Assembly (NCBI GenBank): GCA_951406725.2
Contig: OX597838.1
Location: forward strand, 7,936,001 to 8,000,000
Source: Octopus vulgaris
Taxonomy: Eukaryota
DNA: 64,000 nt
Reading direction: 5' to 3'
In this document: positions 11,985 to 59,138 of the stretch, in pieces
Position numbering within the stretch: position 1 is the first letter of the stretch
How the letters are laid out: each line of letters starts with the position of its first letter
The notes under the pieces: model-generated
What the model was told of the DNA's origin: nothing
Databases searched by the model: none
What the model saw: the letters and a program-made list of their open reading frames with translations, nothing else
Position numbers and translations under genes: made by a program

Positions 11985-12027
11985 ACTTGATCGATTTTCG
12001 AACCTTCTTGGGTTCTCATCAGAGGTG
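11985..12027 (-). ncRNA. Minimal hammerhead-like motif
   Basis: Minus strand CTGATGA-GAACC-caagaa-GGTTC-GAAA-ATCGATC with a perfect 5-bp stem II; stem I is weak. Relative at 59095. Confidence 0.55.
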
Positions 12028-12576
12028 TCCACATATGTATATATATATATATATATATGTGTGTGTTATTACGTGGAAAAACTTACAGTCTTTTATTATT
12101 ATTATTATATATATATATATATATATATATACATATACATATACATATACATATACATATACATACAAATACATACATATACATATATATATATATATAT
12201 ATATATATATATATATATATATATATATATATATATATATATATATATATATATGTATGTATGTATGTATGTATGTATGTATGTATATACAGCAGACGCA
12301 AGACTACCGGAAGAACTGAATTTGATTAAATTTAGAAATATATGCAAGAACAAACAGTAAAAGAGAAGAAATAATACGAAGAAAGTGGATATGAGAAAAA
12401 TATGAGCCAGAAAAGTTCTGAAAAAGAAAGTTTTTTTCCTGATGATAATAATTTAGATATCTTTTATCTTTTACTTGTTCCAGTGATTAGACTGCGGCCA
12501 GGCTGGGGCACCGATCTGAAGGAATTTAGTCGAAAGATTCGACTTCAGTACTTTATTTTGTGTTTATATATATATA

Positions 12577-12730
12577 TATTTTTTTTATTGCCCACATGGG
12601 GCTAAACATAGAGGGGACAAACAAGGACAAACAAAGAGATTAAGTCGATTACATCGACCCCAGTGCGTAACTGGTACTTTATTTATCGACCCCGAAATGA
12701 TGAAAGGCAAAGACGACCTTAGTGGAATTT
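12577..12730 (-). mobile_element. Meta-domain SINE family C (partial)
   Basis: Reverse complement of part of 12769-13090. Confidence 0.85.
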
Positions 12731-12768
12731 ATATATATATATATATATATATATATATATATATATAT

Positions 12769-13090
12769 GAGCTGACAGAAACGTTAGCACGCCGGGCGAA
12801 ATGCGTAGCCGCATTTCGTCTGCCGTTACGTTCTGAGTTCAAACTCCGTCGAGGTCGACTTTGCCTTTCATCCTTTCGAGGTCGATTAAATAAGTACCAG
12901 TTACGCACTGGGGTCGATATAATCGACTTAATCCGTTTGTCTGTCCTTGTTTGTCCTCTCTGTGTTTAGCCCCTTGTGGGTAGTAAAGAAATAGGTATTT
13001 CGTCTGCCGTTTCGTTCTGAGTTCAAATTCCACTAAGGTCGACTTTGCCTTTCATCATTTCGGGGTCGATAAATAAAGTACCAGTTACGT
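12769..13090 (+). mobile_element. Meta-domain SINE family C, dimeric form
   Basis: Head gagctgacagaaacgttagc, B-box gagttcaaa.tcc and Meta-like ggtcgactttgcctttcatcctttcg.ggtcgat..ataagtaccag; the B-box and Meta block occur twice. Confidence 0.85.
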
Positions 13091-13829
13091 ATATGATGGT
13101 GGCGTGGAGGTAGTAATGATGATAATGAAAAGATAGCGTAGGAAGATAATGTATATGATGATGATGATAATGATGGTGATGGTAGTGGTGGTCGTGGTGG
13201 TGGTGGCGGTAAGGGTGATACAGATGATGATGATGATGATGATGATGATGATGATGACAATGATGGTGGTGGTGACGACAACGACGACGATGATGATGAT
13301 GGTGGTGTCGGTAGTGGTGATAGAGATGATGATGATGATGATGATGATGATGATGATGATGTTGATGATGATGATGATGATGATGATGATGATGATGATG
13401 ATGATAATGATGATGATGGTGGTGGTGGTGACGACGATGACGACGACGTTGATGATGACGATGATGATAATGACGGTGTAATAGAAAAGGATTCCAAGAT
13501 AGATTAAAGAGAAGTCACATATACGCATATATATATATATATGTATATATATATGCATATATATATGTATATATATATATATATATATATATATATATAT
13601 ATATATACATATATACATATATATATATACATATATATATATACATATATATATATACATATATATATACATATATATATATATATATATATATATATAT
13701 ATATATATATATATATATATATATATATATATGCAAAAAAGGGTGGAATATAATTAATTTAATAAAATTAATAAATTTCACCTTGTAGGTTTATCGGTAT
13801 GGAAAAGACCATATTTGGTAAGGGTTAGA

Positions 13830-14003
13830 ATAATTATAATTAAGGGTTAATTGCAACAAGTTGCTCAAAACCACATACCGAAAATATTAGAAATAGCAGC
13901 TAAATTGATACTATTTCTCCTACTAATAAAAAGTCTCCACAAACAATATTTTCGGTATGTGGTTTTGAGCAACTTGTTGCAATTAACCCTTAATTATAAT
14001 TAT
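13830..14003. repeat. Fold-back with perfect 59-bp inverted repeats and a 56-bp spacer
   Basis: 13830-13888 is the exact reverse complement of 13945-14003. Confidence 0.9.
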
Positions 14004-55500: not shown

Positions 55501-58500
55501 AGCAAGGAATCATGTATAACAACATATTTACGTATATGCATACCCACACACATATATACTTGCATATTGTCATATATCTGTTATATTTGCATATATACAT
55601 ACATACACACATACATAAAAATATACATGGATACATGTATGGATACTTACCTGCTTTCACACACATACATATACATACACAAACAAACATAATGCTAACA
55701 TACACATATAGATATATACAGTAATGTAAAGGGATCTCAGTCGTTCTCGACGATCATTGTTTCGCGTGTCTTGGTTAACAGAAGCGGCAACACATTGTGT
55801 TATACTGTACTTGCTGAATACTTCACAGACGGTTATACATTGAATGTAATGAAAAAATCAAGACACCGTAGGTGATACGGGTGTCACATTTCAAATACAG
55901 GTATGGCCCAAATACAGGAATAATATTGCGGCCATTTTACTGGCCGCCATATTGTTACTAAAAATGAAGCGTTCTTCACGTGGTTTTAATCAAATTGAAA
56001 TTATGGTCAAAATTTTTTTTTTTAATATCTCTTCAAGATAAAAATACCATAATAGGATCGAACTCTGAATCACTTGATTATGAAGCGAATTTCTTAATCA
56101 GTTGAACATGTCACACATACACATGCACACACAAAAACACACACACACACACACACACACACACACACACACACATACAAACACTGAGTCAAAATCATAC
56201 GAAGGTTGCAGTCGTACAGATCAATCTTTGCATGTATTTTTAAGCCTTTCAGTTGACCTATCGATCTACTGGTGCATGTGGCCGTAACCAAACCAGCACA
56301 TTTAAACACACAAACACACACACACTCACACACACACATACACAAACACACAAAGGGCTTTCGCACAGTCCCTATCGGCCAAATTCTCTCCCAGTTGTTG
56401 GTCAGCCCGGCACCATAGGAAGAAACATTTGTCCAAGTGCATCACGCTAAGACTGAACTTATGACCAACTAGTTGGGAAACAAGCTTCTTAGAAGCGCAA
56501 ACATTATTCTCTCTTTCTCTCCCTCTATTCATCTCTTTCTCTCTCTTTCTCCCTCTCTTTCCCTCAGTATATATATATATATATATATATATATATATAT
56601 ATATATATATATATATATATATATATATATATATATATATATATACATATGTGTATATATATATATATATATATATGTATGTATATATGTATATATATAT
56701 GTGTTTATATACATGTATAAATGTTTATATACACATATATATACACACGTATATATATATGTATATATATATATATATATATATATATATATATGTATAT
56801 ACACGTATGTATATATATATATATCTATATATGTGTGTGTGTGTGTGTGTGTATGTATATGTACATGTAGATCTATACATTTATACATACATTCACGTCT
56901 GCGCACGCAATTGTACTGCTTCCTTACAACCATTAATTCATGCATACCTATATGCATCCATATATCTCTCTATATATATCTATACATATAGATATGTATG
57001 TATGTATGCATGCATGCATGCATGCATGTATGAATGCATGTATGTATGTGCGTACGTACGTACGTATGTGTGTATATATGTATGTATATGTAGGTAACGC
57101 AAGCAAAATGGCGAATGTTCGGTGCGACTTGATTGTGAATTGGCGGCGAGCTGTGTAAGAAGTAAAGTCAATTAGGAATATGTTTCTTCTATATTAAAAC
57201 ACTTCATTAGATGATGAATTCCTGAAAATGAAAAGACAAATAGAAGAAGAAGAAGAAGAAGAAGAAGAAGAAGAAGAAGAAGAAGAAGAAGAAGAAGAAG
57301 AAACGAAAGAAAGAAAGACAGAAAGAAAGAAAGAAAGAAAGAAAGAAAGAAAGAAAGAAAGAAAGAAAGAAAGAAAGAAAGAAAAGAAGAAAGAAAGAAA
57401 GAAGGAAAGGATGGGAGAATTAGGAAAAAATATGAAATGAAGAATGTGCGACAGTCGGAAAGAAGTGGGGGGGTGGCTGGGAACGAACGATATTGAAATA
57501 ACAAAAACAGCAACAACAACAACAAACACAATAACAATAGTAGTAGTAGTAGTAGTAGTAGTAGTAGTAGTAGTAGTAATCATATGAGCATTTATTATTA
57601 ACTGTGAAATTCATTAAACAATATAATTGTATATTAAAGGAAATATGTGTAGATAACATTTTCACGTACATAAATAATGCTCATATACATACATACATAC
57701 ATATATATATATATATATATATATATATATATATATATAGAGAGAGAGAGAGAGAGAGACATACATATATATAGACTCACATGTCTATATAGACACACAC
57801 ACACATATGCATACATATATATGCATATATATATATGTGTGTGTGTATACATGAACAGATATTTACATGTGTCTATAATATAGGTATGTGTGCATAAATT
57901 TGAGAAATACGAATTGACACAACAGACGTAATGTGTGTGTTTGTGTTGTTTGCTTCCTATTAAAACAGCAGACACAAAATGAAAACTTAACGAAATTGTG
58001 ACGTTGAGGAAAAACCACGCGCTCATCCACTTCCCCCCTTATTTAATTTTTCTATACAAGAAATACGGTTGTATCTGTCGTATAGAATATTTATATCTCT
58101 ATACAACAACGGTGGTGGTGGGGTGGGTTCATTGGGTGGTGGTTGGTTAGGAATATTAGATTGACAGGTTAAATACGTTGGTGAACAAATTTACGTCCCT
58201 TTGCGTGGTGAGTTCAATTCCCGCTGAAACAGAGTTATTGTATGATTTTTTACAGAGGCGGATAAAATATAAATAACAGCATCGAATTATTTTCATTCGA
58301 ATTAACTGACCGTTTATGATTCATTAACGCACTTGTTAGGTACCAGTAATTATAATTACGGTGAGGTGATTCCTTCTGTTGTTGGTGTTGTTTAGTACCA
58401 GCTCTGCATTGACTGGACAAATATAAGAGCATAAGCCTTCACTTATATCCTGGAACAGCGTTAGCACCACCGCAAAGAAAGAAAACAAAGAAATTTCCGT

Positions 58501-58738
58501 GACCCCTCAAAAGTTTATAAATTCTTATGGCGTCAACTACCCACATATCTCACAGGTTAAAATCCTGTTTATTAAACAAATACACGAAACTCGAAGAATT
58601 ATTTTGATTCATTGATAGAACATATGTCATATCACCAGGTGATGTGGGTTCGAATCCGTTTCTTTCTAACTTCCATCTATTTTTCTTTCCAAAAGGATTT
58701 TTTTAGCAAAACAGCTACCCGTTATTGATTTTCGCTTA

Positions 58739-58832
58739 AGGCGGCTAGCCGGCAGAATCGTTAATACGCCGGGTGGAATGTTTAGTGGTACTTCGTCTGT
58801 CTTTACGTTCTTGGTTCGAATTCCACCGAGGA
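58739..58832 (+). mobile_element. Meta-SINE family C head
   Basis: ggcggctagccggcagaatcgttaatacgccggg...ggttcgaattcc. Confidence 0.7.
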
Positions 58833-58862
58833 CTATTATTACTGCTACCGGTAGCTAGCGCC

Positions 58863-58920
58863 AATCGTCGTAAAGTCGATCGGTCGTAAATCGGATAAGC
58901 CGTAAGTCGACGACGACCTG
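58863..58920. mobile_element. Tigger/pogo-like transposon terminus
   Basis: Minus strand TA-CAGGTCGTCGTCGACTTACGG with repeated GA(C/T)TTACG motifs. Confidence 0.55.
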
Positions 58921-59094
58921 TATATTATAATCATGCCTTGGTACTGTGTGACCTGATGTCTCCGTTGACAGGATGTTGATATGAAGGAAAGTGCTAAGTA
59001 CTTGTAGCATAAAAAATAGGCGTCTCTATTTCCATTGTTTTGTATATATACCGATTGACTGCTTACTTCTTTAGGACAGGTAAAATGATGTAAA

Positions 59095-59138
59095 CACCAC
59101 TGATGAGACCCCAATAAGTTTAGAAAATCGATCGAGGT
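59095..59138 (+). ncRNA. Degenerate hammerhead-like motif (family of 11985)
   Basis: acacca-CTGATGA-gaccccaataagttta-GAAA-ATCGATC-gaggt; stem II has decayed. Confidence 0.4.

Follow-up and report, generated by a model that had tools for sequence, protein, structure and literature searches.

Minimal type-I hammerhead motifs in short repeats of an octopus genome region probably derive from Penelope-like elements

Introduction

Minimal hammerhead ribozymes (HHRs) of type I occur by the thousands in individual metazoan genomes, where they form several families and are mostly found as single motifs, linked to truncated Penelope-like elements (PLEs), and also as pairs on opposite strands (Cervera and de la Pena 2014, PMC4209133). 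The traits described for them in that paper are an extra base after A9, a G10.1-C11.1 pair, a palindrome at positions 15.2-16.2 and a helix I of 4-5 bp, and the activity reported there is none for monomers and weak for dimers. We here analyze a stretch of 64,000 nt from Octopus vulgaris (contig OX597838.1, positions 7,936,001 to 8,000,000; in the following “the window”), in which eight motifs of this kind had been noticed in short, mostly TA-associated repeats. These motifs are minimal type-I hammerhead sequences within short repeats, which are likely the terminal repeats of PLEs (pLTRs) or derivatives of these repeats without open reading frame (ORF), and a lack of catalytic activity is predicted for the scattered single copies.

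The hallmarks of PLE insertions include an inverted 5'-truncated copy and a one-sided tail of 30-40 bp (Craig 2021, PMC8557442). Inverted pLTRs, a 31-bp tail, target-site duplications of 8-10 bp and solo pLTRs have also been reported, and the pLTR sequence alone suffices in cis for an integration in trans (Arkhipova 2013, PMC3846280). A CX4CxxC linker marks the Neptune and Nematis clades, and it has been suggested that this linker directs insertions preferentially to microsatellites, as proposed for Neptune (Craig 2021, PMC8557442). A second group of relatives are the retrozymes: over 6000 type I motifs of 16 families have been counted in a coral (Cervera 2020, PMC7229834), and ORF-less retrozymes have been traced to PLE pLTRs in a comparison of 35 genomes, i.e. 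31 vertebrates, three insects and one anthozoan (Li, Clavereau and Pollet 2026, bioRxiv 10.64898/2026.07.22.740005). In case of octopus and other cephalopods, our literature search, outside of which most subscription journals, Repbase and Dfam lay, found no paper dedicated to hammerheads.

Hammerhead motifs in the window

The window consists of AT-rich, animal-type DNA with dense short repeats, and 34% of it was masked as microsatellite. All eight CUGANGA-like...GAAA motifs of the original prediction are present at or beside the positions given for them, with their C3 at 12022 (-, A1), 21393 (+, B1), 41009 (-, C-), 41032 (+, C+), 47648 (-, D), 47784 (+, E), 54737 (+, B2) and 59100 (+, A2), and the stem pairs and palindromes that had been quoted are genuine in the sequence. 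They represent five sequence types, with two copies each of A and B, two arms of C, and D and E, which bears out the claim that several families of PLE-type minimal type-I hammerhead motifs coexist here. As the motifs listed at 40970 (-) and 41028 (+) are the two arms of one single insertion, there are seven loci rather than eight. The suggested density of one motif per 8 kb is overstated, as it takes this insertion twice and includes four decayed copies.

None of the eight copies combines a canonical core with both stems. The core CUGANGA...GAAA is exact in A1, in C+ and, with respect to its first half, in A2; it differs by a single base in B2 (A6>U) and in E (U4>C), and it is damaged in B1, C- and D. 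The unpaired base between positions 9 and 10.1 and the closing G10.1-C11.1 pair are both found in B1, B2, C+ and E, and the pair is also present in A1, there without an extra base after A9. The palindrome of the mini helix III is ACGT in B1, B2, C+ and E and is lost in C-, and palindromes of 6 nt occur in D and, behind an extra A, in A1 and A2. Helix I comprises 5 bp in B2, 4 bp in E and 5 pairs including a G-U in C-, and is unformed in A1 (one pair), C+ (two contiguous pairs), A2 and D.

A descriptor that allows one change in the core and requires a stem II of at least 4 bp closed by G-C, GAA, a palindromic A..T and H matches the window five times, at 12022 (-), 41032 (+), 47784 (+), 54737 (+) and 22254 (+), and thus recovers four of the eight noted motifs plus one that had not been listed. 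In 300 dinucleotide shuffles of the 41,364 unmasked bases, the mean number of matches was 0.027 and the maximum was 1, and when a stem I of 4 bp was added, the two matches E and B2 remained, with none in the 300 shuffles. The motif frequency is thus above that of dinucleotide-shuffled non-microsatellite sequence, as had been predicted, with the reservation that the descriptor was composed after the motifs were known and that the significance is therefore overstated. The motifs that fail the descriptor are B1 with its two single-base deletions, C- with its damaged 3' half, and A2 and D, in which stem II is broken. A scan with a model (R2) recovered only B2 and E, which were its training members, as well as B1 and C+ at an E-value of 0.03 or better, and no further copies.

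The fifth match (22254-22300, +) is hammerhead-like, with an A6>U core, a 5-bp stem II and an AATT palindrome, but without stem I and without a second copy in the window. Three other candidates were rejected, as 9478 (-) is an arm of a local hairpin, 56458 (+) belongs to another repeat, and 31256 (-) is part of a (TGA)n run.

Could all this be due to chance matches in low-complexity DNA? The large microsatellite portion would agree with such a view, and seven out of nine isolated motifs fold no better than shuffled sequences, while D, A2 and the match at 22254 are each weak when taken alone. Moreover, Rfam hammerhead models gave no match among the 69 obtained for 47560-48700 and none among the 18 for 40880-41200, and there is no hammerhead row among the 150 of 631 matches listed for the whole window, although this silence would in our view be expected for motifs without helix III. 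Against chance speak the descriptor counts and, as outlined below, the abundance of E, a core half that was not queried but is found in 14 of 19 outside loci, the covariation of stem I, and the anatomy of locus C. With respect to B, C and E, chance is already refuted, and as an explanation of the motifs in general it is extremely improbable.

An inverted-pair insertion at locus C

Both C motifs are arms of an ORF-less insertion of 232 bp (40929-41160). The inverted arm C- (40929-41010, -) is a decayed minimal HHR with its core at 41009 and damage on the GAAA/palindrome side, and the direct arm C+ (41031-41115, +) has a canonical core at 41032, the extra A, a stem II of 8 bp, the ACGT palindrome and a predicted cut after 41067. 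The two arms form an inverted repeat of 85% identity around a spacer of 20 nt, and stem I of C+ is mostly lost because this arm is truncated just 5' of the core. Only the right arm continues into a tail (41116-41160, +), which is 45 nt long and contains one additional 9-nt tandem unit. An exact 14-bp direct repeat (40915-40928 and 41161-41174, +) flanks the whole insertion and probably represents the target-site duplication; none of 3000 random, mutually overlapping placements reached 14 bp, the maximum being 11 bp.

Locus C hence unites the inverted truncated copy, the one-sided tail and the putative target-site duplication that characterize insertions of endonuclease-containing (EN+) PLEs, and since the inverted pLTR, the tail and the duplication match the descriptions of Craig (2021) and Arkhipova (2013), we read it as a PLE insertion. 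The inverted pair itself may have arisen by fold-back or by a template switch. For a transcript across the insertion, one long hairpin of -132 kcal/mol is predicted, and therefore both motifs would be blocked. The insertion is more than 1.3 kb away from any (TA)5.

Families B and E

B2 (54652-54868, +) is an ORF-less element of 217 nt between two TA runs, with a minimal HHR at 54732-54769 that has the A6>U core, a 5-bp stem I, a 4-bp stem II, ACGT and a predicted cut after 54764. B1 (21382-21468, +) is 96.8% identical to it over 63 nt, but 5'-truncated and internally deleted, with the two single-base deletions inside the motif, and its 3' end is 1 nt away from a (TA)n. A6>U is present in both copies, and these two copies are all that is known of family B. 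Element E (47734-47913, +) is likewise ORF-less and consists of a T-run, a pyrimidine tract, the minimal HHR (47780-47814) and a T-rich 3' part. Its motif has the U4>C core, stems I and II of 4 bp each and ACGT, with a predicted cut after 47810. The copy in the window is placed between a short TA run and a (TA)n, and it is devoid of a leader of about 26 nt that other copies possess. A fragment at 15914-16001 (-) resembles the 3' part of E (70% over 88 nt, E-value 5e-6) and contains no hammerhead motif. B2 and E are 69% identical over 136 nt (E-value 6e-6), a downstream 11-mer is common to both families, stem II is alike in both apart from its loop, and stem I has changed on both sides and still pairs. 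B and E are sister families of about 200 nt, embedded in TA runs.

The abundance was assessed with contigs of four runs that were aligned at 80% likeness to 47121-47913, a region that covers D and E; three are DNA runs, labelled as three different organisms. A run that may be RNA (X9) likewise consists of contigs and does not count as evidence of expression. The flank depth in the three DNA runs was 42, 41.7 and 14.5, and over E it rose to 1.7-3.3 million, 2.1-4.2 million and up to 60,000, respectively, i.e. about 4x10^4 to 10^5 times the flank in the first two runs and 4x10^3 times in the third, which only shows a very high abundance, as summed contig depth is not a copy number. The depth is 1.7-3.3 million across 47742 to 47876 and has reached the flank level of 42 by 47714. 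At 47734-5, contigs with loose ends (among the rows listed, 41 and 38 of 10,270 aligned contigs in run X1, and 37 and 31 of 10,200 in run X4) show a common leader of about 26 nt that is preceded by TA letters in both runs, and the share of aligned contigs that run on unlike is 0 in X1 and X4. This suggests a fixed start of E and a unit length of about 205 nt. Such a unit likely is what spreads, and it may be either a solo pLTR or an independent non-autonomous family. No alternative letter of at least 8% is listed at 47780-47813 in the four runs (best 40 of 56 rows), and U4>C is therefore likely the family state.

Are these families self-standing, or did all copies simply arise as 3' ends of autonomous PLEs that lost their 5' part? 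Heavy 5' truncation is frequent among PLE copies (Craig 2021, PMC8557442), and B2 and E are as long as pLTRs, for which 193-218 bp have been given (Arkhipova 2013, PMC3846280). Moreover, the truncation of B1 and of C+ lies at the motif, and in an outside locus described below (L020) the motif follows 100 nt behind the stop codon. Ragged truncation, however, agrees poorly with the depth profile of E, with its one common TA-preceded leader and with the lack of unlike run-on, and B2 begins directly at its TA run, with a leader of a length similar to that of E. That truncation accounts for all copies is thus a possibility that deserves attention, although we tend to doubt it. Of the proposed ORF-less elements of about 200 bp, the length applies to B2, C and E, and E does look like an ORF-less unit of about 205 nt that is very abundant, whereas the length common to the A copies is 59 nt and the repeated part of D has about 54 nt.

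With regard to TA microsatellites, four of the eight motifs (A1, B1, B2 and E) belong to elements with an end at most 6 nt from a (TA)5+ run, compared to 1-2% of the unmasked bases, and the 3' ends of B1, B2 and E are 0-1 nt away from such runs, with 1% of the unmasked bases being within 5 nt. The distance is 205-1446 nt for C, D and A2, and of the 40 merged repeat blocks in the window, irrespective of kind, 10 also end within 10 nt of (TA)5+. The proposed bias toward TA runs thus is credible for B/E only; it extends to one end of A1 and does not hold for C, D and A2. A Neptune-like enzyme may have nicked the TA runs at B and E.

A further repeat of 200 nt, with copies at 48486-48687 (+, TA-flanked) and 21644-21843 (-) that are 87% identical, has a T-rich tail like B and E, and a 10-nt inverted repeat closes its first 150 nt. 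It contains GAAA, then a short helix with AUC at its end, and finally CUGAAGA, which are pieces of the core in a permuted, type II-like order. The 10 nt expected to form stem I are unpaired, the copies fold no better than shuffles (z -1.6 and -0.6), and there was no Rfam ribozyme match.

Relation to Penelope-like elements outside the window

A pattern made of stem II and the 3' core only, with the first core half and stem I outside of the query, found 19 loci in metagenome contigs, of which 14 carry the unqueried CTGA core half with at most one change; it is absent in L004, L005, L007, L012 and L014. For the covariation analysis, E and B2 were aligned with 12 of these loci, i.e. with 11 that have the core half and with L012, in which stem I pairs, whereas L002, L006 and L018, which nearly duplicate other loci, were left out along with the four unpaired loci. 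The score for stem I was 0.190 as compared to 0.088 after shuffling (0 of 500 shuffles reached it) and 0.03-0.10 in slid controls, a value that is inflated by kinship, as related sequences can exceed shuffles without structure. Pairing of stem II across the loci is uninformative, because this stem was fixed by the query, and the expected covariation of the stems is therefore supported for stem I in this qualified way only.

Two loci connect the motif to PLE proteins. In L003, the motif is situated about 680 nt behind a reverse transcriptase (RT) frame (Pfam RVT_1, E-value 5e-8) and a frame with CxxCxxC and GIY-YIG, the latter with an E-value of 2e-4 and 21.8 bits, slightly below the Pfam cut-off of 22.6. 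In L020, an animal-like contig, a motif with a U4>C core as in E follows 100 nt behind a frame of the CX4CxxC/GIY-YIG type that resembles L003 (tblastn E-value 1e-8), and an inverted RT-bearing copy lies upstream. These PLEs of the Neptune/Nematis type share with B and E the extra A, the GAGC/GCTC stem II and the ACGT palindrome, and they differ in having RT and GIY-YIG frames upstream of the motif and, in case of L003, in having no TA run near it. As U4>C occurs in three of the outside loci (L010, L018 and L020), it is not unique to E.

Several observations weigh against our interpretation. The likeness of B and E to L003 and L020 is limited to the motif of about 30 nt. A tblastn search of the window with the two L003 proteins gave nothing under an E-value of 2, and the same queries detected a PLE ORF in only one of the 19 metagenome loci, which is L003, the source of the queries. 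In none of the 19 loci does a TA run come as close as 1 kb to the motif, and the suggested fixed 5' end of E is based on few loose-end contigs among the rows listed. Types A and D fit poorly, as they have no stem I and as their status as families depends on two copies or on a depth peak, respectively. The postulated linkage to PLE ORFs thus exists behind the same type of motif in L003 and L020, but was not found in the window, and in a similar way the idea of a kinship with PLEs gains support from the anatomy of locus C and from the motifs of L003 and L020 without a PLE ORF being detectable in the window.

Other pattern searches remained negative: a B-specific pattern had no match in the metagenome contigs, a C-specific one had none in viral and prokaryote contigs, and the B/E pattern had none in viral contigs. 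A viral locus found with an A-type pattern (L022) was judged a chance match because of its unpaired stem II, and L021 is a chance match inside a bacterial gene. The animal-type PLE sequence in positions 2180-5204 of L020 sits in a prokaryote genome bin, and similar sequence is found in the metagenome contigs L001-L003, L006, L008-L013 and L015-L019, which is likely due to host contamination of these collections.

Predicted folding and possible mechanisms

The hammerhead fold makes up only a minor share of the predicted monomer ensembles, namely 0.5% for E, 0.9% for B2 and less than 1e-6 for C+, and in the predicted folds of B and E the core pairs with the ACGU side, which results in a rod. As these shares are below 1%, and as no monomer activity is reported for the published class, the prediction for single copies is that they do not cleave. 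Cutting would require a dimer, which could be provided by tandem source loci, none of which were seen. In the mechanism that we favor, a PLE reverse transcriptase with GIY-YIG endonuclease, encoded elsewhere in the genome, would have copied the RNAs of these repeats in trans into their present sites.

Alternatively, the dispersed monomers could stem from active non-LTR retrozymes, with tandem arrays elsewhere that self-cleave, RNAs that circularize, and PLE enzymes that retropose them. Units of 200-230 nt would suit retrozymes, which have 220-240 bp in coral (Cervera 2020, PMC7229834), and for dispersed monomers of retrozyme families, including those with minimal HHR models, an origin from PLE pLTRs has been described (Li et al. 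2026). However, a self-comparison of the window revealed no head-to-tail pair of motif-bearing units, and no end-to-start joint of E is among those listed for the four runs, in which contigs drop rare forms. Furthermore, retrozymes have been tied to canonical HHRs with loop contacts, from which minimal ones are set apart (Cervera 2020, PMC7229834), and the cores of B and E carry substitutions. Tandem retrozyme units were thus not found in this window, and an origin of the copies from active retrozymes appears rather unlikely.

What else could a hammerhead be kept for? In B and E, the hammerhead-shaped hairpin may be retained not as a catalyst but as a signal that the PLE enzyme recognizes or uses for priming. 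Both TA-flanked families have changed a core base that is normally invariant, U4>C apparently throughout the family and A6>U in both B copies, and the predicted pairing of the core into a rod would be compatible with such a role. With a changed A6, activity is low, the rate of A6C being less than 0.1 per min (Perreault 2011), and the function of HHRs in PLEs has been called unclear (Craig 2021, PMC8557442). On the other hand, U4>C is less active in vitro, yet it permits viroid infection (Perreault 2011), and the same change recurs in L010, L018 and L020, the last of which is beside a PLE ORF. Dimer-type motifs are expected to fold poorly as monomers, the canonical core of C+ being predicted to fold even worse, and B is known from two copies only. 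We therefore consider a pure signal function improbable, albeit worth keeping in mind.

A bolder variant, for which we see only a small chance, would be that E and B are ORF-less parasites of a Neptune-type PLE on the scale of short interspersed nuclear elements (SINEs), with about 205-220 nt and tens of thousands of copies, which target TA runs, have fixed core substitutions and spread without cutting, the motif being the RNA handle of the PLE enzyme. If this were true, E and B would offer a ready natural test of why PLEs carry hammerheads.

Types A and D and other repeats

A1 (11976-12034, -) has a canonical core at 12022, a 5-bp stem II with an extra A and a 6-nt palindrome behind it, and an unformed stem I; its 5' end is 6 nt away from a TA run, and a CA run follows about 60 nt downstream. 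A2 (59088-59146, +) is a decayed copy of family A with a canonical first core half at 59100, a broken stem II and no adjoining TA, and it is 83% identical to A1 over 59 nt, which is the whole shared length. D (47607-47660, -) is a decayed motif resembling a minimal HHR, with its core at 47648, an ACATGT palindrome and broken stems I and II. It behaves as a low-abundance repeat confined to the motif (about 54 nt), with a depth of about 21-26 times the flank in the three DNA runs.

Other repeats of the window are described here for completeness. Broken frames at 8393-9400 (-) end at an (ATT)n, have nothing in Pfam, and include a frame at 8396-8887 with 11 homologs of 54-80% identity; they look like a LINE of the Dong/R4 type with a restriction-like endonuclease. 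Altogether, nine frames of the window were compared with Pfam, and nothing exceeded the cut-off. A weak match to a mariner-type transposase fragment (15275-15565, -; PF01359, E-value 0.002) is below the cut-off. At 23844-23961 (+) there is a single 5S rRNA copy (82.4 bits) with several mispairs, which may be a pseudogene or the head of a 5S-derived repeat. Palindromic, MITE-like or fold-back elements are found at 34086-34344, 13833-14000, 48121-48232 (with a (TA)n centre), 35202-35273, 20059-20264 and 9451-9507. A repeat of two parts that encloses a microsatellite and has no hammerhead motif is frequent, with copies at 39-467, 3861-4256, 18322-18736 and 61711-62176 along with partial ones, and a second frequent family is represented by 12636-13091, 36720-37154 and 39168-39455.

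Comparison with known systems

The motifs belong to a published class that is common in animal genomes, and the families found here are new. They may help to classify unassigned short repeats of this lineage: elements of the B, C and E type may be included in the 893 recently active families that an annotation of 2026 lists as “unclassified SINE”, in a main text that does not mention ribozymes (PMC13282606). Constructs based on B, C and E could also be used to ask whether PLE hammerheads must cut.

With metazoan PLE-linked minimal HHRs, our motifs share the type I topology without a stable helix III, and all of the traits listed by Cervera and de la Pena (2014, PMC4209133) are found in B2 and E and most of them in C. 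They deviate in helix II, which has 4 bp in B and E as compared to 7-8 bp in the schistosome families of that paper, and in the core changes A6>U and U4>C, the paper giving U3-A8. E also seems far more common than the 2,000-9,000 motifs per genome given there, a comparison that relies on rough depth only.

Compared to the pLTR insertions of EN+ PLEs (PMC3846280, PMC8557442), locus C is alike with regard to its inverted truncated arm, the tail at one end and the target duplication, and unlike in that it has neither an ORF nor a second direct pLTR. Its duplication of 14 bp exceeds the published 8-10 bp, and its tail has 45 nt, or 36 nt without the extra 9-nt unit, as compared to 30-40 bp. Non-LTR retrozymes (PMC7229834; Li et al. 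2026) resemble our elements as ORF-less, pLTR-derived units of 200-300 nt with type I HHRs that occur as dispersed monomers, but they are defined by tandem units and circular RNA, and such tandem units were not found here. What is specific about the octopus elements is the abundance of E together with its apparently fixed U4>C, the A6>U shared by both copies of its sister family B, and an ORF-less insertion C that displays the whole anatomy of a PLE end.

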